DNA of 64,000 bases, taken from Candidatus Staskawiczbacteria bacterium RIFOXYB1_FULL_37_44. Lineage in GTDB: Bacteria; Patescibacteriota; Minisyncoccia; Minisyncoccales; Staskawiczbacteraceae. The translations under genes and the position numbers were made by a program. The stretch covers positions 6,870 through 70,869 of the forward strand of contig MHPJ01000001.1 in NCBI GenBank assembly GCA_001822065.1. The letters are read 5' to 3'. The first letter of the stretch is position 1. Every line of letters starts with the position of its first letter. Below the pieces are notes generated by a model, which was not told the origin of the DNA, did no database searches, and saw nothing but the letters and a program-made list of their open reading frames with translations. Positions 4,342-64,000 of the stretch are shown one piece after another.

Positions 4342-4348
4342 CTATAGC

Positions 4349-4384: not shown

Positions 4385-4423
4385 TTGAATTTGAAAAAAA
4401 ATTAGGATATTATAAAATATATT

Positions 4424-9720: not shown

Positions 9721-9721
9721 T

Positions 9722-9743: not shown

Positions 9744-9746
9744 TAA

Positions 9747-9780
9747 CAAAAAACGGCTCAGTACGTTGAGCCGTTTTTTG
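9747..9780. terminator. Bidirectional terminator between convergent genes
   Basis: An A-run, then acggctca-gtacgt-tgagccgt, then a T-run. Sits between clpB (+) and the ORF at 9787-10563 (-). Confidence 0.8.
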
Positions 9781-9786
9781 ATTGCT

Positions 9787-32492: not shown

Positions 32493-32502
32493 ACTAACAA
32501 GC

Positions 32503-33501: not shown

Positions 33502-33519
33502 GTAAAAAATTTAAAAACT

Positions 33520-34443: not shown

Positions 34444-34459
34444 ACCTGACGACCAACAC

Positions 34460-35824: not shown

Positions 35825-35846
35825 TTTTTAATTCAAAGTAATAGAC

Positions 35847-42653: not shown

Positions 42654-43397
42654 ATGGCCCTATCTAAAGAAGAAATTTTAAAAAAAGTTCATGAGGTCCC
42701 TTTCTGGGGTCACTCTATTCCTTTGGGAAACGATATTGTGACTCCCGGGAAGGTGATGGATAATTTATTGACTTTGGAAAGATTACAGTTGCCCATGACC
42801 CTGAAAGGCAAGCGAATTCTTGATATAGGCGCATGGGATGGATATTATAGTTTTGAATGTGAGAAAAGAGGAGCTGATGACGTTGTAGCGATTGATAATC
42901 TTTATAGAATGCAAAGACCCGATGAAACACAATATGCAAATTTAGGTTCTAAAGGCTTTCAGGTTGCAAAAGAGATATTAAACTCAAAGGTAAAATATTA
43001 TGATATGGACGTATATGATATCTCTGAAAAGAATTTAAATGGTAAGTTTGATATAGTATTATTTTTGGGATTGCTATATCATTTAAAATATCCTGTTTTA
43101 TCATTTGAAAAGATATCAAATATCTGCAAAGATGTGTTGATTATAGAGAGCGCATATGTAAAGACTTTCACATCAAGACCCATTTTGGAATATGCGCAAG
43201 GAAATACTTTTAATCAGGATCCAACGAACTGGCATATACCGAATATTCCAGCAATAGAGGGCATGGCAAGAGATGCGGGGTTTAAAAAAATTGAAGTTTT
43301 ATTCAAAACACCCTTGAATATTAAAAGTTTAGTTGGAGGAATTTTAGGAATAAAAAATCCTCGTTACGGTCGTGTTATTCTAAGAGCAACAAAATAA
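42654..43397 (+). CDS. Class I SAM methyltransferase (DUF1698/CmoB-like)
   Basis: 'FWGHSIPLGNDIVTPG', 'ILDIGAWDGYYSFE'. Confidence 0.6.
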   Translation: MALSKEEILKKVHEVPFWGHSIPLGNDIVTPGKVMDNLLTLERLQLPMTLKGKRILDIGAWDGYYSFECEKRGADDVVAIDNLYRMQRPDETQYANLGSKGFQVAKEILNSKVKYYDMDVYDISEKNLNGKFDIVLFLGLLYHLKYPVLSFEKISNICKDVLIIESAYVKTFTSRPILEYAQGNTFNQDPTNWHIPNIPAIEGMARDAGFKKIEVLFKTPLNIKSLVGGILGIKNPRYGRVILRATK

Positions 43398-44122
43398 TGA
43401 AAGCTTTAATATTAGCCGGCGGCAGAGGAAAGCGCCTTGGCGAATTATCTCAAAACAAAAATAAATGCATGACCGAGGTTAAGGGCAGGCCGTTAATACA
43501 ATACAGCCTTGATTTGGCGTGTAAAATGAATATTTCGGAAATGGTGATTTTAGTCGGTTATAGAGCAGAAGATATAACGAGCGCTTTTGGAACAGAATAC
43601 AAGGGAATTCCCATAAAATATGCTGTGCAGCCGGAACAAAAAGGACTGGTTAATGCTATTGAATGCGCAGCTCCCAGTCTTGGCGGCGAAGATTTTATCT
43701 TGATGCTCGGGGATGAACTAATGATACAGCCAAGACACCAGCAAATGCTGGATATGTATAAAAAAGAAGGATTGTTTGCCGTATGCGGAGTTATTAATGC
43801 CCCAGATAAGAATCTTGTCAAAAAGACTTATTGCGTAGTTGAACGGGAGAACAATATAATTTCCCGGCTGATTGAAAAACCGGAAAACCCCTTAAATAAT
43901 ATTATGGGAACAGGGAATGTTATTTTAAAAAATGAAATTTTGTCATATATACCAAAAACTCCCATCAATGCAAATAGAGGGGAAAAAGAATTAGTAGATT
44001 TAATCCAGTGCGCCATTGATGACGGCAAAATAGTAAAATCATTTTATATCTGCGATAGCTATCTCAACATCAATAATGCGGAAGAATTAAAAGAGGCAGA
44101 ATCTTCTTTTTATCATCCTTAA
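43397..44122 (+). CDS. Sugar-1-phosphate nucleotidyltransferase
   Basis: 'ALILAGGRGKRLGELSQNKNKCMTEVKGRPLIQY', 'LMLGDE'. Confidence 0.65.
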   Translation: MKALILAGGRGKRLGELSQNKNKCMTEVKGRPLIQYSLDLACKMNISEMVILVGYRAEDITSAFGTEYKGIPIKYAVQPEQKGLVNAIECAAPSLGGEDFILMLGDELMIQPRHQQMLDMYKKEGLFAVCGVINAPDKNLVKKTYCVVERENNIISRLIEKPENPLNNIMGTGNVILKNEILSYIPKTPINANRGEKELVDLIQCAIDDGKIVKSFYICDSYLNINNAEELKEAESSFYHP

Positions 44123-44126: not shown

Positions 44127-45491
44127 ATGAAAATACTTTTTTACACCCATACTCCAAGAGCTTTTAGAACAACTTTAATTGGATATCTTTATGAACTTTG
44201 CCAGATTCACGAAGTTGTTTTGCTTGCTGAAAAATTAGACCAGGAAACAGAAACAGCATTAAAGAGAAAAGACTTGTTTCCGCGATTGTCAAAAATTATT
44301 ACAGTTGAACAATTTACCGGGCGGAAAAGGGGATTGCTTGCCAAAAATAAATATTTTTTTACTTTGGCGAAAGAAGTGGTTTTAAGCCACATGCCAGATG
44401 TCGTCATTTTGGCCAGTGATTTTCATCCGTTTGAATTATATTTGGCAAGGTTTGCCAAAAAAAATGGGGCGCTGGTCATAACGACTCAAGCTTTTTTTTC
44501 AATGGTCGATTGGTCAGAAACCTCAAGAATTGCCGATTTATCTAATGCTCATTTAAAATTATCTGCCATGATGCCTTTAAAGATCCGTCTTTTTTTAATA
44601 AAGTGTCGTGAATATTTTGGCCATTTTTTATATTATTGGTTTTTACCGGCGTCAAATCTCCAAAAACCTTTTTTGGGGGAAAGCAGTCTTAATTTGCATC
44701 GCGGGTGGGTGGGAATGAGGGATTCGGACTGCCAGACTGTTTTTTCTAAAATAGATTACGATATTTATTCCCGTATTTATTTGAAATGCGGGGTTCCGGT
44801 TGAAAAAATGTTCATATTGCCCCATCCATTACAACTGGAAGCCAGGGAATTTTTTGAAAAAATATATTTTTCCAAATTTAAAAAAGAAAAAAATGGACGG
44901 AAAATAGCAAGCGTCATGCTTTCAAGTCAAAAAGCCCTCGGGTTTCACAAGGATAATCTTTTACCGATTCCTCCTCTTGAACGGGAGAAGAAATGGTCTC
45001 AGGCTATAAAATTAATGAGTCAAATTTTGGAAGGGTGGCAAATTTATATTAAACCCCACCCGAGTACGAAAAATATAGATCATCTGAAGGAAGTTTTCGA
45101 ACAGATTTCCAGCGACATTAAGGTAACCGACCCCAAAGAACCAGTCGATAAATATATTGAGATGGCCGATGTTGTTGTTGAGCTACCCCCGTCGCTCGGC
45201 ACGTCTCTTTTTACCGCTTTATTGCAATGTCCCGAAAAACCCATTATTTCTTTGGACCTTTATAATGAACTTGCAGGGGATGGGTATAAGAATTTTCCGG
45301 GAGTAGAATATATCGATGCTGAAAATAAATTTGCTACTGTTTTGAAAGAAATCAAAGAAGATAAATATCGGAAAAATAATTTTTCCAGCAATAATTCTAA
45401 ATCAGAATTATGGCCGCTGGAATTCGAAAATATCGAGAAATTGATAGATTATTTGACCAAAAAGCCAAGAAAATTAAAATCACCGGATTAA
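44127..45491 (+). CDS. Hypothetical protein (glycan-locus context; possibly a transferase)
   Basis: Long intact ORF tightly packed in the operon. No motif recognised. Confidence 0.3.
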   Translation: MKILFYTHTPRAFRTTLIGYLYELCQIHEVVLLAEKLDQETETALKRKDLFPRLSKIITVEQFTGRKRGLLAKNKYFFTLAKEVVLSHMPDVVILASDFHPFELYLARFAKKNGALVITTQAFFSMVDWSETSRIADLSNAHLKLSAMMPLKIRLFLIKCREYFGHFLYYWFLPASNLQKPFLGESSLNLHRGWVGMRDSDCQTVFSKIDYDIYSRIYLKCGVPVEKMFILPHPLQLEAREFFEKIYFSKFKKEKNGRKIASVMLSSQKALGFHKDNLLPIPPLEREKKWSQAIKLMSQILEGWQIYIKPHPSTKNIDHLKEVFEQISSDIKVTDPKEPVDKYIEMADVVVELPPSLGTSLFTALLQCPEKPIISLDLYNELAGDGYKNFPGVEYIDAENKFATVLKEIKEDKYRKNNFSSNNSKSELWPLEFENIEKLIDYLTKKPRKLKSPD

Positions 45492-47336: not shown

Positions 47337-48521
47337 ATGATCAAAAATTTTAGAAAAATTAAAGGAGTTAAAAGGTTTTTTGACAAGCATTTTGACGAGG
47401 TTTTTTATTTTTTAAAGAAGAGAAGATTCGTTAAGGCTTATAATCTTATTTGGAGTCAATTGTGGGTAAGAGATTTGGATGGAGGTAAATTTGACTGGAT
47501 ATTCAGGCGCTTTCCGCAATTAGCTCCTTATCCTAAGGAAATTGAAATAGAAATTACCACGAGGTGTTATATGAAATGCATAATGTGCGAGCACACCCAT
47601 TGGAAAGATGAAAATTATCGGAGCCAAGATATGAATTTCGAGCAATTCAAATCAATCATAAATCAATTCCCTCACTTGCGTTACATCAACGTTACGGGGG
47701 AAGGAACCGGGTTTTTGAATAAGGATTTTTTTAAAATGTTGGATTATTTGAATAAAAAGAACGTAAATACGATGTTCGTGGAGAATTTCGATTTGTTTGA
47801 CGAGGAAAAAATTAAGAAGATAATTGATTTGGATGTAGAGCGGATTGAGGTATCTCTCGACGCCGCTACCGAAGATACTTATAAAAATATTAGGATAGGA
47901 GCTAAATGGGACAGGGTGATGGAAAACTTAAAAAAAATGAGAGAAATGAAGATTAAACACAAGACTCCATTCCCGTATATTTTTTTCAGACTTATAGCGA
48001 TGAAAAATAATGTTCACGAAATACCGGCATTGGCTAGATTAATAGGAGAACTCGATATAAATTTAGGAAAAATAACCGATTTCCAGATAGTTGGCCTTTT
48101 GAGTTTTCCCGAAATCGAACACCTTAATGTTGAAAATATTTCGGAGCAAATTATAAAAGAAGCCGATTCCATAGCAAAAGAAATGAATATAAATCTGATC
48201 TGGTCTCATACGTCGAACAATTGCAGCAGTAATAATTTTTGCGCAAAGTGGCTGCAACCGTATATTATGATAGACGGTTCTGCTATTTTGGACTGCGCCT
48301 TGATGATGGAGAATAACCGTTCCCAATTGAAAAGAACCTCTTTGGGCAACTTATTTAATCAGAATTTTAGAGAAATATGGGACAGTCCGCGCTATCAACG
48401 GATACGCAAAGGCATAAATAAAATAAATGGACCCGTGCCGAAATTATGCGAAGGATGCAGAGGGTATGACACCAAACAAAGAGAAAAATTATTTGGGATC
48501 ATGAGCGATAACAAGAATTAA
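47337..48521 (+). CDS. Radical SAM enzyme with C-terminal Cys-rich (SPASM/twitch-like) region
   Basis: 'TTRCYMKCIMCEH' CX3CX2C. C-terminal 'NNFCAKW...LDCALM...PKLCEGCRGY'. Confidence 0.7.
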   Translation: MIKNFRKIKGVKRFFDKHFDEVFYFLKKRRFVKAYNLIWSQLWVRDLDGGKFDWIFRRFPQLAPYPKEIEIEITTRCYMKCIMCEHTHWKDENYRSQDMNFEQFKSIINQFPHLRYINVTGEGTGFLNKDFFKMLDYLNKKNVNTMFVENFDLFDEEKIKKIIDLDVERIEVSLDAATEDTYKNIRIGAKWDRVMENLKKMREMKIKHKTPFPYIFFRLIAMKNNVHEIPALARLIGELDINLGKITDFQIVGLLSFPEIEHLNVENISEQIIKEADSIAKEMNINLIWSHTSNNCSSNNFCAKWLQPYIMIDGSAILDCALMMENNRSQLKRTSLGNLFNQNFREIWDSPRYQRIRKGINKINGPVPKLCEGCRGYDTKQREKLFGIMSDNKN

Positions 48522-50764: not shown

Positions 50765-51721
50765 ATGAAATATCTAATTACCGGATTTTCCGGTTTCGTC
50801 AGTGCCCATTTTGTTAAATATTTGTCTGGAGCAGAAAAAAATGTCAGCATCTGCGGCCTCGATATCGTCGAGCCAGCTTTCGATTTTAAAAATTATAAAA
50901 ATGTTAGCCTCAGTTTTTTGAAAGTTGACCTTTTGGATAAAAATAAAGTTAAAAAAATAATTTTAAAATTTCAGCCTAATTTTATTCTACACCTAGCTTC
51001 CCTCAGCAGTGTCGCTTTTAGCTGGCAGAATCCGATTATCAGTTTCAACAATAATAATAATATTTTTTTGAATATTCTTGAAGCCGTTAGAGAGACGGGC
51101 ATTAAATGCCGGATATTATCGGTGGGCTCTTCGGAGGAATACGGTCTCGTCCAAGACAAAGATATTCCATTGACCGAGTCGTCTCCGTTGAACCCTACAA
51201 GCCCTTATGCCGTCGCCAGGGTTTCTCAGGAGTTGCTTTCTAAAATTTATTTTTGCGGATATGGCATAGACATCATCATGACCAGATCTTTCAATCACGT
51301 CGGTCCCGGACAGAGAGAAATGTTTGCCGTGCCCTCTTTTGCCAAACAGATGGTGGAAATGAAGAAAAAAAACAGACACAATGGATCCCTGCGAGTCGGC
51401 AATACCGAGATAGTGCGGGATTTTTTAGATGTTCGCGATGTGGTGAAGGCTTATTATCTGCTTTTTCAAAGAGGCAAAGCCGGAAAAATATACAATGTTT
51501 GCGGCGGTCGAGGAATATCTCTTAAAGAATTAATAAATCTGATAGCCGATTATTTAAAAATAAAAGTTGCTTTGAAGGTGGACCGGTCATTGGTTAGGCC
51601 GAATGATAACCCTGTGGTCATAGGAGATAATAAAAAAATTAAAGAAGAGTTAGGCTGGTGGCCAACCATACCCTTAGAAGAAAGCATAGCCGATATTTGC
51701 GATTACTGGATGAAAAAGTGA
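50765..51721 (+). CDS. Extended-SDR nucleotide-sugar reductase/epimerase (GDP-6-deoxy-4-keto-hexose reductase-like)
   Basis: 'YLITGFSGFVSAHF', 'SPYAVARVSQE' (YxxxR instead of YxxxK). Confidence 0.55.
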   Translation: MKYLITGFSGFVSAHFVKYLSGAEKNVSICGLDIVEPAFDFKNYKNVSLSFLKVDLLDKNKVKKIILKFQPNFILHLASLSSVAFSWQNPIISFNNNNNIFLNILEAVRETGIKCRILSVGSSEEYGLVQDKDIPLTESSPLNPTSPYAVARVSQELLSKIYFCGYGIDIIMTRSFNHVGPGQREMFAVPSFAKQMVEMKKKNRHNGSLRVGNTEIVRDFLDVRDVVKAYYLLFQRGKAGKIYNVCGGRGISLKELINLIADYLKIKVALKVDRSLVRPNDNPVVIGDNKKIKEELGWWPTIPLEESIADICDYWMKK

Positions 51722-51749: not shown

Positions 51750-52598
51750 ATGTTAACTATCTTTGCTATTCCAAAATCATTTGAAGGCGATATTGCCATA
51801 TCTCAGGAGAACGCCATTAAAAGTTGGCTTTTGCTTTTGCCAAAACCGCAAATTATTTTGTTTGGAGATGAAATAGGAATAAAAGAAATATCAGACAAGT
51901 TTGGCATCCAACACGTAAAAGACGTCAGAAAAAATGAATTTGGCACTCCTTTGTTGAACTGGGTTTTTGACAAGGCAAAAGATTTGGCAGAAAATAATAT
52001 TTTGGCGTATGTTAATTCAGACATTATTTTGACTCAGGATTTTATAGATGCCGTAAGTCGCATTAAGGAGAGTAAATTTGTCTCCTTTTTAGCGTCTGGG
52101 CAAAGGGAAGATTTGGATTTAAACAAACTTGTTGATTTTTCTAAAGAAGGTTGTATTGATAATCTTAAAAAAAAGGGAATAAAACATGGCATGTCGGGTA
52201 TGGATTATTTTATTTTTCCTAGAAATTTTTCTGTAAATTTACCCGATTTTGCTGTTGGTATTTCTGGCTGGGATAGCTGGCTTGTATATCAAACAAAGCG
52301 CTTGAAAATTCCCTTTATAGATGCCACTTTGTTGATCACGGCAATTCATCAAAATCACTTGCCACGCCACCAAAAAAAACTCTCATACGAACAAGAGAAA
52401 AAAGAAAATTTCAAGTTAGCGGGAGGGCAAATCAATATGATGAGTTTGCGGGAGGCAGATTGGATTTTAACTAAGGATGGGATAAAAAGGCCGGGTTTTC
52501 CCAGGATTATTTTTTGTAAACTATCTTTATTTTATCCATGGAGAATGATTTTTTTATTTAAAAGGAAAATTGATAGTTTTATGGGCAGATCAACATGA
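51750..52598 (+). CDS. Hypothetical protein, possibly a GT-A-like glycosyltransferase
   Basis: 'IFAIPKSFEG...NAIKSW', 'AYVNSDIIL'. Context only. Confidence 0.3.
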   Translation: MLTIFAIPKSFEGDIAISQENAIKSWLLLLPKPQIILFGDEIGIKEISDKFGIQHVKDVRKNEFGTPLLNWVFDKAKDLAENNILAYVNSDIILTQDFIDAVSRIKESKFVSFLASGQREDLDLNKLVDFSKEGCIDNLKKKGIKHGMSGMDYFIFPRNFSVNLPDFAVGISGWDSWLVYQTKRLKIPFIDATLLITAIHQNHLPRHQKKLSYEQEKKENFKLAGGQINMMSLREADWILTKDGIKRPGFPRIIFCKLSLFYPWRMIFLFKRKIDSFMGRST

Positions 52599-53915: not shown

Positions 53916-54965
53916 ATGAATTGGAAAAGTGCTATAAAACATTTGGTTTTTATTAGAAATAAGCCGTTGGTCATTTTTGGGATGGCAAAGGGATTTTTTA
54001 AAGCTATTGTCTTAAGACAAAACGTTTTGAGAACGGTAGACTTAGCTGTTACCTATAACTGCCATTATAAATGCGAGTATTGTTCGGCTTTCCTTCTTAA
54101 AAAAGAGGGTAAAGAGGTTTTAACAGTAGAACAGATTAAAAATATTTGGGAGCAGGCCAGATCGCTCGGCGCAATGCATATTAATCTTACTGGAGGAGAA
54201 CCGTTGATGAGAGACATAGATGAGCTTTGCCGCATTATTAAAAATTTTTCTCCTGAAAAGACATTAGTGTCTATGGTTACGAATAGCGTTCTTGTGACTA
54301 AAGAAAAACTAAAAAAGTTGAAAGAAGCGGGATTGGATACGTTGCAACTAAGTATTGAAAGTTTGGATCCGAAAATAAATGACAGGATTAGAGGGATAAA
54401 AGGCGTTACTCAAAAAACGACAGAGGCGCTTAGGTTTGCTAAAGAGCTGGGGCTTAATGTATGTCTTAGTGCAGTTGCTTGCCATGATAATCAAACAGAA
54501 TTAAAAAAACTGTTGGATTTTGCAAAAAAAGAAGATGTTTTCCTTTTGTTAAATACGGCCTCTTCCGTAGGAAAATGGCAGGAAAAAAGTGAAATGAAAA
54601 TGGTTGAAAAAGATATCGTTTTGTTTGAAGATTTTATGAAAGACGCATATGTCAGGAGTGACACTTCTTTCAATTTTTCAGGTAAAAGCGGGTGTCCGGG
54701 TGGAAAGGAGAGGATTCACATTACAGCTTATGGGGATGTTATCACATGCCCCTTGGTTCAAGTGAGCTACGGTAATGTTTTGAAAGAGTCATTACAAACG
54801 ATTTACAAACGCATGAACCGTATGCCCTTTATTAAAAAATATAGCAGATTATGTAAGCACAGTTTTGATGATGAATATTATCAGCAGATATGCAGGCCAG
54901 CTGAACAAATAAAAAATCCCCCTATGAGCGTTTTTTCCCATCCAAACATAGAAAATATTGATTAA
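53916..54965 (+). CDS. Radical SAM enzyme (second copy, with C-terminal Cys cluster)
   Basis: 'TYNCHYKCEYCSA', 'LTGGEPL'. C-terminal 'GCPGG...ITCPLV'. Confidence 0.7.
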   Translation: MNWKSAIKHLVFIRNKPLVIFGMAKGFFKAIVLRQNVLRTVDLAVTYNCHYKCEYCSAFLLKKEGKEVLTVEQIKNIWEQARSLGAMHINLTGGEPLMRDIDELCRIIKNFSPEKTLVSMVTNSVLVTKEKLKKLKEAGLDTLQLSIESLDPKINDRIRGIKGVTQKTTEALRFAKELGLNVCLSAVACHDNQTELKKLLDFAKKEDVFLLLNTASSVGKWQEKSEMKMVEKDIVLFEDFMKDAYVRSDTSFNFSGKSGCPGGKERIHITAYGDVITCPLVQVSYGNVLKESLQTIYKRMNRMPFIKKYSRLCKHSFDDEYYQQICRPAEQIKNPPMSVFSHPNIENID

Positions 54966-54975
54966 GAGATTATTT

Positions 54976-55668
54976 ATGAAGCTTTCAATAATAATTCCCT
55001 GTTTCAATGAAGAGGCGACAATATCAAAGATTATACAAAGAGTAGCAGATGTTGACTTAATCGGCATAGAAAAAGAAATTATTGTGGTTGACGACGGATC
55101 AGACGATAGAACTTTTGGGACATTAAAACAGCTCAAAAATAAGTTTGATTTTCAGCTGTTTAATCATGGGATAAACCTCGGCAAAGGGGCAGCAATAAAA
55201 ACGGCCTTAAAAAATATCAGTGGCGATTATGTTATCATACAAGATGCTGATTTAGAATATAATCCCGAAGATTATAAAAAACTTTTACGTTGCGTACAGG
55301 AAAAGAGCGCTCAGGTTGTTTACGGATCAAGGTATTCTGGATCGGAAGGTAAATATTCCCACCCATTTTTTTACTTTGGTGGCAGGATTTTGACTTGGCT
55401 TACAAATTTGTTATATGGCACAAGGATTAGTGACGAAGCAACGTGCTATAAACTTTTTAAAAGAGAAGTTATTTCTAAGATTGATTTAAAGTGTAAGGGG
55501 TTTGATTTTTGTCCGGAAATTACTGCAAAAGTGTTAAAAAAAGGGATTAAAATATATGAGGTACCGATTGGGTATTCTCCCCGCAATATTGAAGATGGAA
55601 AAAAAATAAAGCTAAAAGATGGGCTTTATGCTATTTGGATTTTGATAAAATATAAATTTATAGATTGA
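54976..55668 (+). CDS. GT2 polyprenyl-phosphate glycosyltransferase (DPM1/GtrB/ArnC-like)
   Basis: 'LSIIIPCFNEE', 'IIVVDDGSDDRT', 'IIQDADLEYNPED'. Confidence 0.75.
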   Translation: MKLSIIIPCFNEEATISKIIQRVADVDLIGIEKEIIVVDDGSDDRTFGTLKQLKNKFDFQLFNHGINLGKGAAIKTALKNISGDYVIIQDADLEYNPEDYKKLLRCVQEKSAQVVYGSRYSGSEGKYSHPFFYFGGRILTWLTNLLYGTRISDEATCYKLFKREVISKIDLKCKGFDFCPEITAKVLKKGIKIYEVPIGYSPRNIEDGKKIKLKDGLYAIWILIKYKFID

Positions 55669-55670
55669 AC

Positions 55671-56225
55671 ATGGATTCTTTATTAGACAAGCTATTTCGT
55701 TTTTGGAGAACGCAAAAGGTCATTAATCATATTCTCAAAGGATCAATAGTGTGCGACATCGGTTGCGGTTTAGATGTTTATTTTCTAAACAGAATAAAGC
55801 GATCGATAAAAAAAGGAGTTGGTTTGGATCAGGATTTATGCGACTACACAGAAGGAAATTTAGAATTTAAAAATATAAAAATAGATAGCAATTTGCCTTT
55901 TCCAGATGATTATTTTAATGCAGCTACGATGGTTGCTTTTTTAGAGCACATAGAAAGTCCAGAGATTATAACGGGGGAGGCTTTTAGGATTTTAAAAAAG
56001 GGAGGAAAGTTGATATTGACTACGCCATCTCCAATATCTAAACCAATTTTAATTTTTTTAGCTTTTCTGAGCCTCATAGACAAAAGGGAAATTTCAAGCC
56101 ACAAAAATTATTTTTGGCCGAAAGATATTAGGAAAATACTGAGCGGCGCAGGATTCAATAAAGAAAACGTAAAAATAAATTTTTTTGAATTTTTTACTAA
56201 CATTGTAGCGGTAGCAACAAAATGA
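55671..56225 (+). CDS. Class I SAM-dependent methyltransferase
   Basis: 'VCDIGCGLD', 'AFLEHIESP', 'KKGGKLILTT'. Confidence 0.6.
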   Translation: MDSLLDKLFRFWRTQKVINHILKGSIVCDIGCGLDVYFLNRIKRSIKKGVGLDQDLCDYTEGNLEFKNIKIDSNLPFPDDYFNAATMVAFLEHIESPEIITGEAFRILKKGGKLILTTPSPISKPILIFLAFLSLIDKREISSHKNYFWPKDIRKILSGAGFNKENVKINFFEFFTNIVAVATK

Positions 56226-57319
56226 CCATTTTTAAAAAATATCTTTTACTTACTTTTTTTGTAGCATTTTTGAATTTACTGATTATCTTATTTTTTTTCG
56301 TTCCCAGGCTAAATGCTACTGACAGCGCACAGTATATCTCAACGATTCTGCATCTTTCGGGCGACCATTCAGAAACTCTGTATCCCTTTAGAGTTATAAA
56401 CCCTTTACCCGTTTTAATAGGAGCAATCCTTTCGCCGTTTATGTCGGCTTCTGCAACTCTTATATTGCAAAATATATTTTTTTATTTTGGCTCGGTTTTA
56501 GTTATTTTTTTATTGATAAATTCAGTTTATAAAAACGAGAAACAGGCTTTTTATGGGGCAATTCTATTTTCAACAGCCTATCCCGTAATGGCTTATGGCT
56601 TGTCTCCACTTACCGATTTTAGCGGGTGGTTTTTCTATATCCTATGTATTTATCTTACAGTAAGATTTTTTAAAAAGCCGATTTTAAGAAAGAGTTTTCT
56701 TATTGGACTTTTGGGCGGAATAGGCATGCTGTTTAAGGAAAATTTAGCCGCCTTGCCGATTTTTTTCTTTGTATTTGTTTTCGTATGCGCAAATTTTTCT
56801 CTTAGGAACAAGGTAAGACATATTTGTGTATTTCTATTGGCATTTTTTTTACCCGTTATTACTAGCGAAGTTATGATCTATCATTTTTTTTCTTACTCAA
56901 TGATACAATGGTATTTAAACGTTTCTTTAACCCACGGCAATTCATTTATTTATGCATATAGTCCGCTTAGAATCGTCATTGAAATTGCCAGAGTGTTTTC
57001 TTTCGGATGGATTTTTTTCCTAGCAGGACTCATTAGGGAAATAAGAACAAAAGATAAAAATCGGACTAAAATTTTAATCTCCTTAATCCTACCTTCCTTA
57101 TCCTTTTTCCTTTGGGCGTTTCCTCATAATAGAATTGCTTTTATTTCGGCCCCTTTAATTATTTTACTGGGAAGCTTCGGATTTATAGAATTATTTAAAA
57201 ATAATAAATATAGCAGATATATAGAAATAACCCTTTTGTTTTTTTACATTTTTATAAATTATTTTTTGGTCGAATTTTTATTAAAATATGGAGACGCATT
57301 AAGAATATATTTTAAATAA
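56222..57319 (+). CDS. GT-C fold membrane glycosyltransferase (ArnT/PMT-like)
   Basis: More than 9 TM helices. The first-loop acidic motif 'ATDSAQYIS' is analogous to the D/E-x-D...Y loop of GT-C enzymes. Confidence 0.55.
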   Translation: MTIFKKYLLLTFFVAFLNLLIILFFFVPRLNATDSAQYISTILHLSGDHSETLYPFRVINPLPVLIGAILSPFMSASATLILQNIFFYFGSVLVIFLLINSVYKNEKQAFYGAILFSTAYPVMAYGLSPLTDFSGWFFYILCIYLTVRFFKKPILRKSFLIGLLGGIGMLFKENLAALPIFFFVFVFVCANFSLRNKVRHICVFLLAFFLPVITSEVMIYHFFSYSMIQWYLNVSLTHGNSFIYAYSPLRIVIEIARVFSFGWIFFLAGLIREIRTKDKNRTKILISLILPSLSFFLWAFPHNRIAFISAPLIILLGSFGFIELFKNNKYSRYIEITLLFFYIFINYFLVEFLLKYGDALRIYFK

Positions 57320-57328
57320 TCAGAAAAT

Positions 57329-57700
57329 ATGAGCCCGTTTATCTTTTTAGCAATATCTATAATATCTACAGTAACCGGCCAACTTTTATTAAAAAAGGGG
57401 GTTTTACTAGTGGGAAAAATAGAATTTTCCCTTAACGGCATTTTTAATTTAGCCTTGCAGTTCTTTAAAAATGCATACCTGTTTTTCGGTCTTTGCCTTT
57501 TCGTGTTCGCCTTTATTTTTTGGGTTTTTGCCCTGTCGAAAAAAGATCTCGGCATTATTTATCCTATTTCAAGCAGTTTGGTGCTTTCTTTAATAGTTTT
57601 TGGGTCATTTTTGTTTTTTAAGGAAAGTATTTCTTTATGGCAGATTTCTGGAATTGTTTTTATAATTTTTGGCATTTTTTTATTATTGTTTAAGGGTTGA
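57329..57700 (+). CDS. Small 4-TM EamA/SMR-like transporter (ArnE/ArnF-like lipid-linked sugar flippase candidate)
   Basis: 123 aa with 4 hydrophobic helices. Located between the GT-C and GT2 genes. Confidence 0.5.
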   Translation: MSPFIFLAISIISTVTGQLLLKKGVLLVGKIEFSLNGIFNLALQFFKNAYLFFGLCLFVFAFIFWVFALSKKDLGIIYPISSSLVLSLIVFGSFLFFKESISLWQISGIVFIIFGIFLLLFKG

Positions 57701-57705
57701 CTAAA

Positions 57706-58692
57706 ATGGAAAAATTAGTTTCAATAATAATCCCTTGCAGGAACGAAGAAGAATTTATTTCAAGATGCCTATATTCTGTTTTAAATAACGATTATCCAAA
57801 AGATAAATTGGAAATTTTTGTTGCAGACGGAGAAAGCCAAGATAAAACCCGTGAAATTGTCAGCAGATACATAATCAAGTATCCTTTTATAAAGTTATTG
57901 AATAATCCAAGACATATTGCTGCTTCTGCGCTTAATTTGGGGATTAAAGAGTCAATGGGAAGTATTATTATAAGAATGGACGCGCATGCAATTTACGATA
58001 AAAATTATATATCTAAGTGCGTTTGTTATTTGCAAAACTACGACGCTGATAATGTGGGGGGAGTAATATATATAATCCCAAGGGAAAACACGCCTGTCGG
58101 CAGGGGGATTGCAAAAGCAATGTCATCTTTTTTGGGAACCGGGGGCGCGCATTATAAGCTTGGAGCTAAAAGCTTCAAAGAAGTTGATACGGTTCCATTT
58201 GGATGTTTTAAAAGGAGTATATTTGATAAAGTTGGTTTTTTCAATGAGAATCTCAAAAGAAGCCAGGATCTGGAATTTAATTTGCGTATTAAAAGAGCCG
58301 GCGGTAAGATTTATTTGTTTCCGGACATTGTAAGCGATTATTACTCGCGCTCCGGGCTAAAAGATTTTTTCATTTACAATTTTAAAAACGGCATTTGGGC
58401 TATTTATCCTTTTAAATTTGTTAAAACGTTATTTAAGCCAAGGCACTACGCGCCGTTAGTATTTGTTTTGGGGCTAACTTTTCTGTTTATGGCTGGCCTT
58501 TTTGTGAGACCATTTTTGTATATGTTTTGGACTGTAATTATTTTATATTTAGCGATTATATTATATGCAGCTGCTAAAGTTTCGTTAAAAGAAAAAGATG
58601 CAACATATCTATTCTCTTTGCCGGTTGCTTTGGCCGTCAGACACTTTTCTTATGGGTTGGGGTCTATTTTTGGTATAATAAAATTATTATAA
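57706..58692 (+). CDS. GT2 glycosyltransferase with C-terminal TM helices
   Basis: 'VSIIIPCRNEEEFI', 'FVADGESQDKT', 'RMDAHA'. Hydrophobic C-terminal 90 aa. Confidence 0.75.
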   Translation: MEKLVSIIIPCRNEEEFISRCLYSVLNNDYPKDKLEIFVADGESQDKTREIVSRYIIKYPFIKLLNNPRHIAASALNLGIKESMGSIIIRMDAHAIYDKNYISKCVCYLQNYDADNVGGVIYIIPRENTPVGRGIAKAMSSFLGTGGAHYKLGAKSFKEVDTVPFGCFKRSIFDKVGFFNENLKRSQDLEFNLRIKRAGGKIYLFPDIVSDYYSRSGLKDFFIYNFKNGIWAIYPFKFVKTLFKPRHYAPLVFVLGLTFLFMAGLFVRPFLYMFWTVIILYLAIILYAAAKVSLKEKDATYLFSLPVALAVRHFSYGLGSIFGIIKLL

Positions 58693-58693: not shown

Positions 58694-59287
58694 ATGATAA
58701 AAAGATTATTTGATATAATTTCATCTGTAATTGGTTTGTCAATTGTTTCGCCGATTTTTTTATTCGTGGTTTTTTTGATAAAAAAAGAATCTCCTGGGCC
58801 GATTTTTTATAAAGCCCAAAGAATCGGTAAGAAGGGAAAGCCTTTTAGTATGTATAAATTTAGAACAATGGTTGAAAATGCCGATAAAATTGGCGGATCC
58901 TCCACGCCCAACGATGATCCCAGGCTTACTAAAATCGGTTTATTTTTAAAAAAATACCAGTTAGATGAGTTGCCGCAGTTGTTCAATGTGCTAAAAGGTG
59001 ATATGAGTATAGTAGGACCCAGGCCGCAGGTTTCTTGGGCAGTTCAGCTTTACACGCCAGAAGAAAAGCAGGTTTTGAGTATGCTTCCCGGTTTGACCGA
59101 TTGGGCTTCTTTATGGAATTTTCATGAAGGAGAAATTTTAGAAGGCAGCAATAACCCCGACAAAGATTATATGGAAAAAATACATCCTGAAAAGATGCGT
59201 CTGCAGTTAAAATATGTAAAAAATCATTCTTTTTGGGTTGACCTTAAAATAATATTTAAAACTTTGCTAAAAGTAATTAAGGGATGA
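58694..59287 (+). CDS. Polyprenyl-phosphate sugar-phosphate transferase (small monotopic PGT, PglC/WbaP C-domain type)
   Basis: 'RLFDIISSVIGL', 'PGPIFYKAQRIGKKGKPFSMYKFRTM', 'DELPQLFNVLKGDMSIVGPRP'. Confidence 0.9.
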   Translation: MIKRLFDIISSVIGLSIVSPIFLFVVFLIKKESPGPIFYKAQRIGKKGKPFSMYKFRTMVENADKIGGSSTPNDDPRLTKIGLFLKKYQLDELPQLFNVLKGDMSIVGPRPQVSWAVQLYTPEEKQVLSMLPGLTDWASLWNFHEGEILEGSNNPDKDYMEKIHPEKMRLQLKYVKNHSFWVDLKIIFKTLLKVIKG

Positions 59288-59296: not shown

Positions 59297-60064
59297 ATGA
59301 AAAAAAATAATTCAAAGAAAAGCGCTAAGGCAGAAGGAGGTCTTAGAACGTCCCAGGAGAAAGAGGTCGGCACGGAGCTTGCCAAAATTTTTACTGAATC
59401 CGCGGACCCTTTGCAAACACGGCTTGATAATTTTCCCAAATATATAAGGCGCCAAAAACTGACAAGATTGCTTTCACTATATGAAATATTTAAAAAAGTC
59501 GTGAATATAAAAGGTTCAATTGTAGATTGCGGAGTTTACCGGGGATTTAGCTTAATGTCTTGGGCGCAAATGAGTGCGGTTTTGGAGCCGAATAATTTTA
59601 CTAGGAGGATTTATGGATTTGATACTTTTGAGGGATTTCCCGGATTGTCGGAAAAAGACGAAAGCAAGATTGGTGCTATATCAAAGGGCGCATTAAGTGC
59701 TGATTCTTTTGAGGAGCTGAGAAAACTTTCAAAAGCATATGACAACAATAGATTTTTGGGGCACATTAATAAGATTGAGCTTATTAAAGGGGATTCTTCA
59801 AAAACAATTCCATATTTTATCAAAAAAAATCCGCAGCTCGTTGTAAGTTTATTATTTTTGGATTTTGACTTGTTTGAGCCCACAAAAGTTGCTCTTGAAA
59901 ATTTTTATCCAAGAATGCCCAAGGGTTCAATTCTTGCTTTTGACGAATTAGATAATCCATTATGGCCGGGTGAAACATTAGCATTGCTGGAAACAATTGG
60001 AATTAGAGAATTGAAAATAGAAAGAGTGGATTTCGATCCTTACATAGGTTACGTTATTTTGTAA
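59297..60064 (+). CDS. TylF/MycF-family (macrocin-type) sugar O-methyltransferase
   Basis: 'DCGVYRGFS', 'GFDTFEGFP', 'FLDFDLFEPT'. Confidence 0.7.
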   Translation: MKKNNSKKSAKAEGGLRTSQEKEVGTELAKIFTESADPLQTRLDNFPKYIRRQKLTRLLSLYEIFKKVVNIKGSIVDCGVYRGFSLMSWAQMSAVLEPNNFTRRIYGFDTFEGFPGLSEKDESKIGAISKGALSADSFEELRKLSKAYDNNRFLGHINKIELIKGDSSKTIPYFIKKNPQLVVSLLFLDFDLFEPTKVALENFYPRMPKGSILAFDELDNPLWPGETLALLETIGIRELKIERVDFDPYIGYVIL

Positions 60065-60065
60065 A

Positions 60066-60857
60066 ATGGACTATAATAGCATTTCAAAAAATATAAGAAA
60101 AAAGATTCTGAAAATGAAATATGAATCCCAAGAGGGGCACATTGGGTCTGCTTTGTCTTGTGTTGATATTTTAAACGTGCTTTATTTTAAAATACTTAAA
60201 ATTGATCCAAAAGATCCTTTGAATGAAGATAGGGATAGACTTGTTTTCAGCAAAGGCCACGCTGCCGCTGCGTTATATGCAGTTTTATCTGAAAAAGAAT
60301 TTTTTGAAGAAAAAATTCTTGATGCATATTGCAAAGATGGTAGCAAATTAGCAGGTCATTCTACGAGAGGATCTGTGCCTGGAATAGAAATTTCTGCTGG
60401 CTCTTTGGGTCACGGCTTGCCTATGGCTTCGGGTATGGCTTTAGCTGGCAAAAAGGATAATAAAAATTATAGAGTTTTTGTTTTAATGTCTGACGGAGAA
60501 ATGGATGAGGGAACAACATGGGAATCGGCTTTGTTTTCAGCTCACCATAAATTAGATAATTTAACCGTGATTGTTGATTATAATAAATGGCAGGCATTTG
60601 GTCGGACTAACGAAGTTTTAAATTTAGAGCCATTAGCAAAAAAATGGGAGAGTTTTGGCTGGAGCGTTAAGGAGATAAATGGTCATAATTTTTTAGAAAT
60701 TGAAAATGTGTTATCTATAGTTCCGTTTGAAAAAGTAAAACCTAATGTTGTTATCGCAAATACGATTAAGGGAAAGGGAGTAGAATTTCTAGAAGATAAA
60801 TTAGAATCACATTACACGCATATTACAAAAGAAGATTATGAGAAAAGCATTCGTTAA
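60066..60857 (+). CDS. Transketolase, N-terminal (TPP-binding) subunit
   Basis: 'GHIGSALSCVDILNVLY', 'SKGHAAAALYAVL', 'GSLGHGLP', 'SDGEMDEGTTWE'. Confidence 0.85.
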   Translation: MDYNSISKNIRKKILKMKYESQEGHIGSALSCVDILNVLYFKILKIDPKDPLNEDRDRLVFSKGHAAAALYAVLSEKEFFEEKILDAYCKDGSKLAGHSTRGSVPGIEISAGSLGHGLPMASGMALAGKKDNKNYRVFVLMSDGEMDEGTTWESALFSAHHKLDNLTVIVDYNKWQAFGRTNEVLNLEPLAKKWESFGWSVKEINGHNFLEIENVLSIVPFEKVKPNVVIANTIKGKGVEFLEDKLESHYTHITKEDYEKSIR

Positions 60858-61758
60858 AACTTTAATTGAGTTGGCAGAAAAAGATGACAGAGTTTATCTT
60901 CTGACAGGTGATCTGGGCTTTCACGCCTTGGAAGGTTTTGCTGAAAAATTTCCAGAAAGGTTTTTAAATTGCGGGGTGGCTGAACAAAATATGATGGGTG
61001 TGGCTGCTGGACTTGCTTTGTCCGGGAAAAAACCTTATGTTTATTCAATAGTGCCTTTTGTTACTTTAAGATGTTTAGAGCAAATAAGAATCGACGTGTG
61101 TTATCATAATTTAGATGTTAAAATAATAGGAATCGGCGGAGGATTTTCTTATGGAACTTTAGGATCAACTCATTCTGTTATGGAAGAGATGGCTATTTTA
61201 AGAACTATTCCAAATATGTCGGTTTTTTCTCCTGCTGACCTTTTAGAAACAGAAGAGTTATTTTTAAAAACTTATGAAAATAAAAATCCGGCATATTTTA
61301 GATTATCAAATATTGGGCAGTATGAAGTTTACGATAAAAATCCTAATCTTGAAATTGGCAAGCCAAATGTGGTTAAAGATGGAGCAGATGGAGTTATTGT
61401 CGCTACGGGTTTGATGGTTTCTATATGTTTGGATATTATAAAAAAGATAAAAAATGAAAATAATATAAACCTGAAATTATTAAGTGTTCACACCGTAAAG
61501 CCGTTAGATGAAAAATTATTAATGGAACAGATAAGTGACTTTAAAAAAATTTTTGTTATTGAGGAGCACAGCGTTATTGGCGGATTGGGATCTATTGTCG
61601 CTGAAGTATTAGCAGATTCGGGATATGGAGGAATTTTAAAAAGGGTTGGTATGGATGACGAATTTTTAAAGGAGATTGGGACGGCCGATTATTTACGCGC
61701 AAAGCATATAGTTAAGAAAAATGGCGCGATAGAAGATATTTTAAATTATTTTAAATAA
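60838..61758 (+). CDS. Transketolase, C-terminal (pyrimidine-binding) subunit
   Basis: 'FLNCGVAEQNMMGVAAGLALSGKKPYV'. Overlaps the N-subunit gene by 20 nt. Confidence 0.85.
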   Translation: MRKAFVKTLIELAEKDDRVYLLTGDLGFHALEGFAEKFPERFLNCGVAEQNMMGVAAGLALSGKKPYVYSIVPFVTLRCLEQIRIDVCYHNLDVKIIGIGGGFSYGTLGSTHSVMEEMAILRTIPNMSVFSPADLLETEELFLKTYENKNPAYFRLSNIGQYEVYDKNPNLEIGKPNVVKDGADGVIVATGLMVSICLDIIKKIKNENNINLKLLSVHTVKPLDEKLLMEQISDFKKIFVIEEHSVIGGLGSIVAEVLADSGYGGILKRVGMDDEFLKEIGTADYLRAKHIVKKNGAIEDILNYFK

Positions 61759-61768
61759 AAAAGATAAT

Positions 61769-62866
61769 ATGAAAGTTCCGTTTGTAAATTATCCGTTGCA
61801 GTATAAAAATATAGAAACAGAAATTGATTCCGCAATAAAAAAGATTTTGAATAATGGGGATTTGATATTGCGCCAAGATGTGGATGATTTTGAAAAAAAT
61901 ATGGCTGATTTTTTGGGCGTCAAATATGCGGTTGGAGTAAACTCCTGTACTGATGCTTTAATATTTTCTTTGAAATCAGCAGGCATAAAAGAAGGAGACG
62001 AGGTTATTACTGTTTCTCATACCTTTTTTGCCACTATTGAGGCGATTATTCATTGCAGAGCAAAACCTGTTTTAGTAGATGTTGGGGAAGACTTTGTAAT
62101 GGATGTTTCTAAGGTTGAAAGCAATATAACAGATAAAACTAAAGCTATAATTCCGGTCCATTTTAATGGACATATGGTTGATATGGACAAGCTTAATGAG
62201 ATAGCAAAAAGGCATAATTTAATTATTATTGAAGATGCAGCTCAAGCCCTTGGCGCCGCATTTAACAATAAAAAAGCTGGCTCCCTGGGTTTAGCTGGGT
62301 GTTTCAGTTTTTATCCTGCAAAATTATTGGGTGCTTTCGGTGATGCCGGAATTGTTGCAACCAACGACCAAGTTCTAGCCAAAAACATACGTTTGCTAAG
62401 GAATCACGGTTTACGCACAAAAACAGAAATATTGTTGTTTGGATTTACAAGCAGATTAGATAATTTACAGGCAGCTGTTTTAAATGTAAAATTTAAATAT
62501 TTGGACCAGTGGATACAACGAAGAAGAAAAATAGCTGAAATTTATAAAGACAAGTTGTTTGATGTTAAAAATATAAAACTACCTTTTAACTCTGGCGGAA
62601 GATTTTTTGATGTTTTTCAAAACTTTGTCATACGCGCTGAAAAAAGAGACGAATTATTTATTTTTTTAAAAGAAAAAGAAATTGAAACTTTGGTAAAAGA
62701 TCCTGTGCCAAACCATTTGCACTTAGGTTTGAGACTTGATCATTTTAATCTTCCATTGACCGAACGCCTAGCCAAAGAGGTTATTTCTCTGCCGATGTAC
62801 CCAGAACTCACAGACGAGCAGGTAAACTACGTAATAAGTTGTGTTAAAGAATTTTATAAGTTATAA
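61769..62866 (+). CDS. DegT/DnrJ/EryC1/StrS-family PLP-dependent sugar aminotransferase
   Basis: 'AVGVNSCTDAL', 'IIEDAAQALGA', 'SFYPAKLLGAFGDAG' (PLP Lys). Confidence 0.85.
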   Translation: MKVPFVNYPLQYKNIETEIDSAIKKILNNGDLILRQDVDDFEKNMADFLGVKYAVGVNSCTDALIFSLKSAGIKEGDEVITVSHTFFATIEAIIHCRAKPVLVDVGEDFVMDVSKVESNITDKTKAIIPVHFNGHMVDMDKLNEIAKRHNLIIIEDAAQALGAAFNNKKAGSLGLAGCFSFYPAKLLGAFGDAGIVATNDQVLAKNIRLLRNHGLRTKTEILLFGFTSRLDNLQAAVLNVKFKYLDQWIQRRRKIAEIYKDKLFDVKNIKLPFNSGGRFFDVFQNFVIRAEKRDELFIFLKEKEIETLVKDPVPNHLHLGLRLDHFNLPLTERLAKEVISLPMYPELTDEQVNYVISCVKEFYKL

Positions 62867-62869
62867 ATT

Positions 62870-64000
62870 ATGGATTTGCCAATTTATTTGAGAAAAAGTA
62901 TAAATCGTTTTCCTTGGTCAAGGATGGCAATTTTATTCTTGGCGGATATTGTTTTAATCATTTTTTCTCTATGGATTTCTTTTTCCCTTAGATTCGACGG
63001 GAATATTCCCGTTCAATATTTTTCAATGATAAAAAACGTCTCGATTTTGGCGGCATTTTTTTGCATTCCTATATTTTATTCTGTTGGATTATATTCTTTT
63101 TCCTGGTCATATGTGGGAATAACTGAATTACTCTCTCTATTAAAGGCTTCGTTTATTGCATTCTTATTTTTAACAACAACTATTTATCTTTCTAAGGAAT
63201 TTCCTGTTTTTAAAGGTTATCCACGCTCGACTCTGATTACCGGGCTTTGCCTGGTAATTATTTTTTGCGGTTCTGTCCGGCTGTCTAAAAGAATATATTT
63301 GGCATTATATAAAAAAGACATCGGGAAAAAAAGAACTTTGATTGTTGGGGCAGGAGACGCCGGCGAGCAGATTTTAAGAAGCGTGATAAGCTCTCCCTTT
63401 ACCGATTATTTTCCTATTGGATTTGTTGACGATAGCGATACAAAGAAGGGCGTTATTATTCATGGGTTGAAAGTTTTGGGAAAAATATCAGATATCCCTG
63501 AAATTGCAGAAAAAAACAGCATAAGCCAACTAATTATTGCATTGCCTTCGGCTGGAAATGCAATAATTAGAAAGGCAATTGAGATAGCGAGGATTGCAGG
63601 AATAAAAAAAATTAAAATTGCTCCAGCGTTAAACGAAATTATCAGCGGAGAGATTTCTTTTAAGAATCTCAAGGATGTGGACGTTGGAGATATTTTAAGC
63701 CGGGAGCAGATTTTTTTGGACACAAAACAAATAGAGGCTTTTATAAAAAATAAAACAGTTTTAATTACCGGGGCGGCAGGCTCAATAGGATCTGAATTAT
63801 CTCGCCAAACTGCCAAATTTAATCCGTCATTAATTTTATTATTGGACCAGGACGAAACGGGAATTTTTAATATTTCTAATGAGCTGGAAAATAGTTTTCC
63901 TAATTTAAAAATTAAATCCATAATTGCAGATATTGGAGACAAAGGTAGAATTAGCGAAATTTTGGGCGCTTTCCATCCAAAAATTGTTTTTCACGCGGCA
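62870..64000 (+). CDS. Membrane-bound CapD/PglF/WbpM-type nucleotide-sugar 4,6-dehydratase; 3' end outside the window
   Basis: Not in the ORF track because there is no stop before the window end. My translation from the ATG at 62870 gives 4 TM helices, 'RTLIVGAGDAGEQILRSV', 'VLITGAAGSIGSEL' and '...KIVFHAA'. Confidence 0.85.
   Translation, partial: MDLPIYLRKSINRFPWSRMAILFLADIVLIIFSLWISFSLRFDGNIPVQYFSMIKNVSILAAFFCIPIFYSVGLYSFSWSYVGITELLSLLKASFIAFLFLTTTIYLSKEFPVFKGYPRSTLITGLCLVIIFCGSVRLSKRIYLALYKKDIGKKRTLIVGAGDAGEQILRSVISSPFTDYFPIGFVDDSDTKKGVIIHGLKVLGKISDIPEIAEKNSISQLIIALPSAGNAIIRKAIEIARIAGIKKIKIAPALNEIISGEISFKNLKDVDVGDILSREQIFLDTKQIEAFIKNKTVLITGAAGSIGSELSRQTAKFNPSLILLLDQDETGIFNISNELENSFPNLKIKSIIADIGDKGRISEILGAFHPKIVFHAA

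Follow-up and report, generated by a model that had tools for sequence, protein, structure and literature searches.

YerE-type enzymes are the known branching enzymes of lipopolysaccharide sugars; YerE itself, from the O-antigen pathway to yersiniose A in Yersinia pseudotuberculosis, takes a nucleotide-activated 4-keto sugar as acceptor, joins a two-carbon unit to its C4 ketone and leaves a tertiary alcohol (PMC12247030). Enzymes of the E1alpha/beta (alphaKADH2) type place acetyl branches from pyruvate onto keto-sugars, as shown in vitro for KbDH-alpha/beta, and the fate of the branch ketone varies by product: it is reduced, methylated, oxidised or, as in kibdelomycin, transaminated (PMC12247030). 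For miharamycin and amipurimycin, split-gene transketolases (TKs) have been proposed as the enzymes that transfer a hydroxyacetyl unit to a keto-sugar; 13 further candidate clusters with split TKs, all from Streptomycetes and none characterised, are attributed to Krug et al. (2024) in the summary given by PMC12247030. Here we describe a split TK, encoded by two adjacent genes (TKN and TKC), in a glycan locus of an uncultured groundwater bacterium, Candidatus Staskawiczbacteria (Parcubacteria, candidate phyla radiation, CPR). The DNA comes from metagenome-assembled genomes; the whole stretch analysed, 64 kb long, is called the window, and identical contigs extend beyond its end. An initial annotation had suggested that this thiamine diphosphate (ThDP) enzyme adds a two-carbon unit to a keto-sugar. 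That central proposal is supported by comparative evidence, because an active-site signature, a nucleotide-sugar gene context and the equivalence of its genomic slot with that of E1alpha/beta enzymes agree. We put the probability at about 0.62 that TKN and TKC form one heterodimeric ThDP enzyme recruited from sugar-phosphate metabolism to nucleotide-sugar tailoring, where it would branch a keto-sugar.

Both proteins match the Pfam families of the TK superfamily (PF00456, PF02779 and PF02780) above the gathering cut-offs: TKN scores 135.7 bits for Transketolase_N (cut-off 22), and TKC scores 108.7 bits for Transket_pyr (27) and 64.6 bits for Transketolase_C (25.9). Among solved structures, the split TK of Carboxydothermus hydrogenoformans is nearest, one chain for each half (TKN to 6YAK, 2.1e-71; TKC to 6YAJ, 2.7e-59), followed by human TK and then 1-deoxy-D-xylulose-5-phosphate synthase (DXS). 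Neither half scores as a DXS, with 40.4 bits for DXP_synthase_N against the Transketolase_N score above, and 34 bits (N-half) and 157 bits (C-half) for TIGR00204, whose cut-off is 466. E1_dh (PF00676) gives TKN only 25.7 bits, compared with 233-256 bits for the true E1alpha proteins of the sister loci described below, and no Pfam match to TPP_enzyme_N, M or C domains was found in either half. The best NCBIfam match, NF004559, gives 259 bits for the N-half and 164 bits for the C-half against a cut-off of 488, which belongs to a full-length model and is out of reach for a half-protein.

We converted residue-level alignments to human TK numbering. TKN retains His37, His77, His110 and His258 together with the metal ligands Asp155 and Asn185, and TKC retains Arg318, Glu366 and the His at position 428. 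Four positions of TKC are substituted (Ser345 to His, His416 to Gly, Asp424 to Leu and Arg474 to Asn), which leaves Arg318 alone of the five canonical sugar-phosphate/acceptor-binding residues (Arg318, Ser345, His416, Asp424 and Arg474). The residues replaced here are those that, in established TK enzymology, hold the phosphate of the substrate and the C2 hydroxyl of the acceptor. With the ThDP/Mg site and the catalytic residues (His and Glu) kept and the phosphate- and acceptor-binding residues replaced, the catalytic engine is intact, whereas the canonical substrate site is not. As judged from these alignments, the window enzyme is a transketolase by fold and catalytic core that falls outside the canonical pentose-phosphate enzyme (EC 2.2.1.1). 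Retention of His37, His77, His110 and His258 also suggests a hydroxymethyl-ketone donor, so that a hydroxyacetyl unit would be expected rather than an acetyl unit.

The substitutions are shared by a large group of relatives. Gly or Ala at position 416 and Leu, His, Gln or Ala at position 424 were found in all 120 of the closest database homologues (52-95% identical) and at 35 of 37 loci from named genomes. The 120 relatives of the C. hydrogenoformans split TK that served as housekeeping-type controls all carry the pattern R-S-E-H-D-H-R, and all five canonical substrate residues (318, 345, 416, 424 and 474) are present in 120/120 of these housekeeping-type split TKs. An exhaustive search of 1.84 billion cluster representatives (50% identity) returned 2245 matches at E<=1e-30; among the best 150 of these, which we inspected, the His416/Asp424 pair did not occur and Gly416 was present in 142. 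The window enzyme shares with canonical TK, including the C. hydrogenoformans split enzyme (6YAJ/6YAK), the fold, the split architecture, the ThDP/Mg motif, the catalytic His and Glu366. It differs not only in the loss of His416, Asp424 and Arg474, but also in about ten more columns around the substrate site that are fixed differently in clade and controls (for example 343 Gly, 387 Tyr, 403 Asp and 421 Tyr) and in a one-residue loop deletion relative to the controls. A neighbour-joining tree unites the 75 clade members in a single bipartition that excludes the controls, human TK and two odd sequences. By these sequence measures, the TK pair is part of a large, previously undescribed branch of the TK family.

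Two variants within the clade were observed. A Bryobacterales contig (L036:8999-10939) encodes a fused single-chain member of 646 aa in an RfbF-RfbG-RfbH context; splitting is therefore not essential to the clade. In 16 split TKs coupled to a DegT-family gene (L051, L052, L055-L058, L060, L064, L068, L072, L081, L082, L084, L107, L123 and L125), His77 is replaced by Trp and His110 by Leu; the window TK retains both His residues. Engineered TKs with a change equivalent to replacement of His77/His110 accept pyruvate as donor. We speculate that the Trp77/Leu110 subgroup may use a non-hydroxylated donor such as pyruvate.

The genes for the window enzyme stand in a series of six plus-strand genes that runs from 58694 to the window end (coordinates of open reading frames, ORFs):

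58694-59287, + strand, small PglC-type polyprenyl-phosphate glycosyl-1-phosphate transferase (initiating PGT) of 197 aa (Pfam Bac_transf, 3.1e-62)
59297-60064, + strand, TylF-family, CalS11-like S-adenosylmethionine (SAM)-dependent O-methyltransferase (PF05711, 3.2e-12)
60066-60857, + strand, TKN, TK N-terminal (ThDP/PP-binding) subunit (Transketolase_N, 2.4e-39)
60838-61758, + strand, TKC, TK subunit with the pyrimidine-binding and C-terminal domains (Transket_pyr, 3.3e-31; Transketolase_C, 1e-17)
61769-62866, + strand, DegT-family pyridoxal phosphate (PLP) aminotransferase (DegT_DnrJ_EryC1, 2.9e-107)
62870-64000, + strand, cut by the window end, membrane-anchored PglF/CapD/WbpM-type UDP-GlcNAc 4,6-dehydratase (CoA_binding_3, 1e-13; Polysacc_synt_2, 1.1e-16)

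The intergenic gaps are 1-10 nt, so the six genes look like one operon, and TKN and TKC overlap by exactly 20 nt (60838-60857). The initial annotation had described this overlap, the position of the split TK between the PGT and TylF methyltransferase on one side and DegT and CapD on the other, and the distance from pentose-phosphate genes. We recovered every gene where it had been placed, the PGT lying just outside the range considered, and found no pentose-phosphate gene in the 64-kb window or in 10-kb flanks on either side. The window holds the first 376 of the 618 aa of the dehydratase; the full gene was read in the identical contigs L001-L003, where the next genes encode Wzz and a PG_binding protein and those beyond are unrelated. 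The enclosing glycan locus starts at ~24.4 kb in the window and continues past the window end. In public records TKC is labelled a hypothetical protein, DegT is called a 'Transcriptional regulator' in one source, and some close relatives of TKC carry the label 1-deoxy-D-xylulose-5-phosphate synthase.

The order PGT-TKN-TKC-DegT-CapD is conserved among the closest orthologues (62-75% identical), and four loci represent it:

P0004 locus: TylF, TKN, TKC, DegT, CapD
P0013 locus: PGT, TKN, TKC, DegT, CapD
P0022 locus: PGT, TKN, TKC, TAL_FSA, DegT, methyltransferase, CapD, Wzz
P0002 locus: PGT, TKN, TKC, DegT, cut by the contig end

A truncated 267-aa gene that follows TKC in L044 was considered as a new partner and rejected, being a DegT 75% identical to that of the window. 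We used DegT as the anchor for a scan of metagenomes, which gave 80 loci (49-69% identical), 61 of them with enough upstream sequence. Directly 5' of DegT, these 61 loci have TKN-TKC in 20 cases and a pair of E1alpha (PF00676) and E1beta (Transket_pyr plus Transketolase_C) in 38; of the other three, two carry a ThDP enzyme at another place in the locus and one has none. Dereplication at 90% DegT identity left 16 loci with a split TK, 26 with E1alpha/beta and three others (n=45). A two-subunit ThDP enzyme thus stands directly upstream in 42 of 45 loci, which indicates that this DegT orthogroup is coupled to such an enzyme, and the split between 16 and 26 loci in one position indicates that split TK and E1alpha/beta are alternative occupants of one functional slot. 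The PGT is directly 5' of the ThDP enzyme in most related modules, and the usual frame is PGT-[ThDP enzyme]-DegT-(class-I methyltransferase)-CapD, with a soluble 4,6-dehydratase sometimes replacing CapD; in L077 this soluble enzyme directly precedes the E1alpha/beta pair. Because the block seen in the window recurs in many independent contigs, the arrangement is not due to chance. One contig, L104, has both types of ThDP enzyme, an E1alpha/beta pair directly 5' of DegT and a split TK ~3 kb downstream (2688-4650 and 8528-10200).

The shared slot brings the window enzyme close to the alphaKADH2 enzymes of kibdelomycin (KbDH-alpha/beta), aldgamycin, avilamycin and similar pathways. These are likewise heterodimeric ThDP enzymes, clustered with a keto-sugar-forming dehydratase and with branch-tailoring enzymes, and it is their type that occupies the position directly 5' of the orthologous DegT in the sister modules. 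However, their N-subunit is E1_dh (PF00676) where that of the window enzyme is Transketolase_N, their donor is pyruvate, and they have been described from actinomycete secondary metabolism, whereas the window TK lies in a cell-surface glycan locus.

More distant relatives (31-46% identical) were collected from GTDB genomes as the 37 named-genome loci. Their hosts include Paceibacteria and Kaiserbacteria, Actinomycetota, Bacteroidota, Acidobacteriota, Spirochaetales, Clostridiales, Simkaniaceae, Bdellovibrionota, three species of Photorhabdus, Aeromonadaceae, Leeia, Nitrospirillum and Azospirillum. We clustered the neighbouring ORFs of the 35 loci with a TKN match, and found short-chain dehydrogenase/reductase (SDR) 4,6-dehydratases or reductases in 27, an RfbF-like glucose-1-phosphate cytidylyltransferase in 20 and a DegT/RfbH-like protein in 20. 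Immediately 5' of TKN there is usually a gene for an SDR or for a methyltransferase; proteins of the latter kind have unrelated folds (TylF type or FkbM type). A 4,6-dehydratase is the common denominator of all TK-clade contexts examined. In six CPR relatives (L011, L016, L019, L028, L029 and L031) the TK stands beside an RfbF/RfbG-type CDP-hexose pathway and the locus has no DegT match; in Photorhabdus, Azospirillum and Leeia, clade members are found in O-antigen clusters. The miharamycin and amipurimycin enzymes resemble the window TK, by description only, as split-gene TKs inside a tailoring cluster that makes a keto-sugar, but belong to Streptomycete antibiotic clusters, whereas the clade of the window TK is found in envelope-glycan loci of lineages that include CPR, Bacteroidota, Acidobacteriota, Proteobacteria and Spirochaetes. 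A literature search found no work linking TKs to O-antigen or CDP-hexose clusters beyond PMC12247030.

The cluster of Photorhabdus temperata DSM 14550 reads E3-like reductase, RfbF, RfbG, RfbH, SDR, TKN, TKC, Wzx and glycosyltransferases (GTs), with RfbF (484 bits), RfbG (520 bits) and RfbH (775 bits, NF011936) all above their curated cut-offs; it contains no ORF of the size of YerE. The cluster has the same logic as the yersiniose gene order: the split TK stands where YerE stands, after RfbF-RfbG-RfbH and beside an SDR, as YerE does with YerF. The analogy with YerE drawn in the initial annotation is thereby strengthened, and relatives of the window enzyme occur in nucleotide-sugar pathways across phyla. 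The likeness is functional only, since YerE is a single-chain enzyme of the decarboxylase superfamily with pyruvate as donor and the window enzyme is a two-subunit member of the TK family.

Two further neighbourhoods were noted among these relatives. In Azospirillaceae (L018:7273-9085 and L032), a sulfotransferase-family protein and an APH-like kinase precede the split TK in place of the SDR or methyltransferase, a hint that the branch may be sulfated or phosphorylated. On a contig with the label Clostridiales UBA4821, an SDR-TKN-TKC-DegT module lies within a few kb of a gene for an STT3 oligosaccharyltransferase of archaeal type (L012:15127-17055; TIGR04154, 304 bits).

The other products of the window operon were compared with solved structures. 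The best solved relative of the dehydratase is C. jejuni PglF/WlaL (5BJU, 1e-85), and it is the predicted source of a 4-keto-6-deoxy-N-acetylhexosamine (HexNAc) acceptor. Among solved proteins, the PGT scores 118 bits against the WbaP catalytic domain and 98 bits against PglC. For the TylF-like protein, the best solved relative is CalS11, a TDP-rhamnose 3'-O-methyltransferase (2.6e-48 over residues 20-241), with LDFDLFEPT aligned to FDLDLYEPT of CalS11, and this methyltransferase probably acts at the nucleotide-sugar stage. Its homologues lie directly 5' of TKN in L006 (60%), L022 (58%), L014, L021 and the P0004 locus. The gene is present beside the TK in the window, as initially annotated, but it is an optional accessory, since two of the four closest orthologous loci (P0013 and P0022) lack it.

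DegT has the PLP-lysine motif SFYPAK. It scores 223-340 bits against solved C3-type aminotransferases (7B0D 340, QdtB 274, DesV 261, WbpE 223 and WlaRG within this range), compared with 118 bits against PglE and 116 bits against PseC. This closer relation to C3-type enzymes argues against simple C4 amination of the CapD product. The initial annotation had DegT aminate that product, which these scores and the almost invariable position of DegT orthologues directly after a ThDP enzyme make doubtful. The PglF-PglE-PglD-PglC module for di-N-acetylbacillosamine offers a further comparison, with a PglF-type dehydratase, a DegT-family aminotransferase and a small PglC-type PGT tightly clustered. It differs from the window operon in that its aminotransferase is PglE, to which DegT is not similar, in having PglD, a type of acetyltransferase that was not found in the glycan locus, and in the absence of a ThDP enzyme between PGT and DegT.

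We propose the following pathway from these homologies. The PglF/CapD-type dehydratase would turn UDP-GlcNAc into UDP-2-acetamido-2,6-dideoxy-hexos-4-ulose. The split TK would then take a hydroxymethyl ketone, for example hydroxypyruvate or a ketose, as donor, make the dihydroxyethyl-ThDP carbanion from it and add this to the nucleotide sugar at its C4 ketone, in place of the usual aldose phosphate acceptor, giving a 4-C-hydroxyacetyl branched sugar with a tertiary alcohol. The QdtB-like DegT probably transaminates the new side-chain ketone, and the CalS11-like enzyme is the probable O-methyltransferase of the nucleotide sugar; an SDR may replace the transamination in other lineages by reducing the side-chain ketone. 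Finally, the small PGT would transfer the sugar phosphate to undecaprenyl phosphate, where it would form the first residue of a Wzx/Wzy/Wzz-type polymer, as the content of the locus suggests. The broader proposal is tentative, and we hold it at less than even odds: that this is a natural TK with a ketone acceptor (an NDP-4-keto-6-deoxy sugar), from a large and widespread clade interchangeable with E1alpha/beta, which together with a dedicated DegT makes undescribed C4-branched amino sugars, for example 4-C-(1-amino-2-hydroxyethyl)-6-deoxy-HexNAc, as the lipid-linked first residue of surface glycans in CPR and other bacteria.

Several observations weigh against the branching of a keto-sugar by this enzyme. 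The exact clade split has a bootstrap value of 46/100, compared with 87/100 for the control clade. Overall sequence identity to housekeeping-type split TKs (37%) is close to that to distant clade members (40%); we dropped identity as a discriminator and relied on the residue signature, the tree and synteny because identity does not separate the groups. The acceptor is ambiguous because the window encodes three other dehydratase candidates:

26328-27395, GDP-mannose 4,6-dehydratase, another possible source of the acceptor
41601-42632, RmlB-like SDR, with a nucleotidyltransferase at 43397-44122
50765-51721, dehydratase-like SDR, another possible source of the acceptor

A TAL_FSA (transaldolase/fructose-6-phosphate aldolase) gene lies between TKC and DegT at L046:9947-10798 and recalls pentose-phosphate chemistry. 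It was found in no other locus examined and is the sole pentose-phosphate-like neighbour of the clade; it may supply the donor or be incidental. A 3,6-dideoxy-4-C-(1,2-dihydroxyethyl)hexose in a Photorhabdus O-antigen is an unverified lead only: our literature search did not find such a dihydroxyethyl-branched Photorhabdus sugar, and the one traceable reference, on P. temperata subsp. cinerea 3240, names a zwitterionic O-polysaccharide in its title. Finally, according to the review PMC12247030, TK-catalysed branching of a keto-sugar has never been shown in vitro.

We also asked how well the genes could be explained in other ways. It may be that the TK does branch a keto-sugar while DegT and CapD separately make a 4-amino-4,6-dideoxy-HexNAc (of the bacillosamine or AAT type) for the PGT, the TK taking part of that 4-keto intermediate, or using a different NDP-4-keto sugar that other genes of the locus supply, so that two sugars result. 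CapD, DegT and a small PGT are the established trio for 4-amino-4,6-dideoxy-HexNAc sugars in the pgl pathway, so DegT might indeed act in parallel to the TK; the relation of the dehydratase to PglF, the other 4,6-dehydratases of the window and the six CPR loci that combine the TK with an RfbF/RfbG-type pathway and have no DegT match all fit two parallel sugars. We nevertheless consider this unlikely, since DegT scores about as poorly against PglE as against PseC and far better against C3-type aminotransferases, no PglD-type acetyltransferase accompanies it, and a simple PglE role would leave the ThDP enzyme directly before DegT in 42 of 45 loci unexplained. The missing PglD, in a module otherwise like PglF-PglE-PglD-PglC, would also fit the idea that the ThDP enzyme and DegT build a free amino-alcohol or acyl substituent, either an aminopolyol or a replacement for the PglD acetyl group, that is later attached to the sugar without a C-C branch on the ring. 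TK-plus-transaminase cascades to aminopolyols do work in engineered systems. To oxidise or transfer such a unit, however, the module offers no partner of the ligase, acyl-carrier, E2/lipoyl or flavin kind, and N-acylation by the ThDP enzyme as a substitute for PglD was ranked low for this lack of an oxidant or acyl-transfer partner. The closest family members of DegT act on nucleotide sugars, the same TK clade occurs in RfbF-G-H cassettes where the sole DegT-family gene is the RfbH dehydrase, and a 4,6-dehydratase accompanies the clade in every context; a free substituent is accordingly an improbable product.

The TK could also be an ordinary pentose-phosphate enzyme, split as in many archaea, Firmicutes and CPR, whose position in a glycan locus is coincidental. 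It has the TK fold and catalytic core, its best NCBIfam matches are transketolase models, though far below their cut-offs, and one orthologous locus has the TAL_FSA neighbour. We find this very improbable. The window enzyme has replaced His416, Asp424 and Arg474, which are kept in all of the housekeeping-type controls. The initial annotation had named grouping with housekeeping split TKs, for a TK that is the only one in its genome, as fatal to its proposal. The window enzyme does not group in this way: the signature is lost and the clade forms a separate neighbour-joining bipartition, at the bootstrap value given above. Synteny with PGT, DegT and CapD is conserved over many contigs, the slot is interchangeable with E1alpha/beta, and the TAL gene occurs in a single locus of all those examined. 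Clade members also sit in the O-antigen clusters of Photorhabdus, Azospirillum and Leeia, and enterobacteria such as Photorhabdus carry their own tktA. Branching of a nucleotide-activated keto-sugar therefore remains our preferred reading of the TKN/TKC pair.

Further features of the window may bear on glycan chemistry. Directly upstream of the PGT, an ArnC/ArnE-F/ArnT-like set at 54958-58692 holds two GT2 genes and, with them, genes for a class-I methyltransferase, a PMT_2 GT-C glycosyltransferase and an EamA/TMEM234-like membrane protein of 123 aa; the set is kept in the closest orthologous locus (L044:3695-6877) and suggests a lipid-linked single-sugar decoration step. The region 31599-36566 resembles an ulosonic-acid or unusual-sugar pathway: its members include a shikimate-dehydrogenase-like gene, a GFO_IDH_MocA oxidoreductase, a DAHP_synth_1/NeuB-like synthase (33520-34443), a fusion of GT2 with a CTP_transf_3 cytidylyltransferase (34460-35824) and a second CTP_transf_3 gene (35847-36566). 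Two radical SAM/SPASM proteins are encoded within the glycan locus (47337-48521 and 53916-54965), one beside GT4 genes and one beside a Wzy-like gene. Four ORFs of the locus, of 282-454 aa, have no Pfam match (37012-37947, 40391-41587, 44127-45491 and 51750-52598).

These comparisons point to a much larger reservoir of candidate branching TKs, spread over many phyla and over O-antigen, capsule and CPR surface-glycan loci. A sequence rule of Gly416 together with the absence of Asp424 would stop such enzymes from being mis-annotated as pentose-phosphate TKs, which matters for metabolic reconstruction of CPR. The Photorhabdus RfbF-G-H-SDR-TK cassette would be a tractable test system in which the acceptor can be made enzymatically, and the clade is a possible source of biocatalysts for alpha-hydroxymethyl tertiary alcohols. 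If the proposed activity is correct, the surfaces of uncultured bacteria are predicted to carry branched amino sugars that have so far gone unrecognised.

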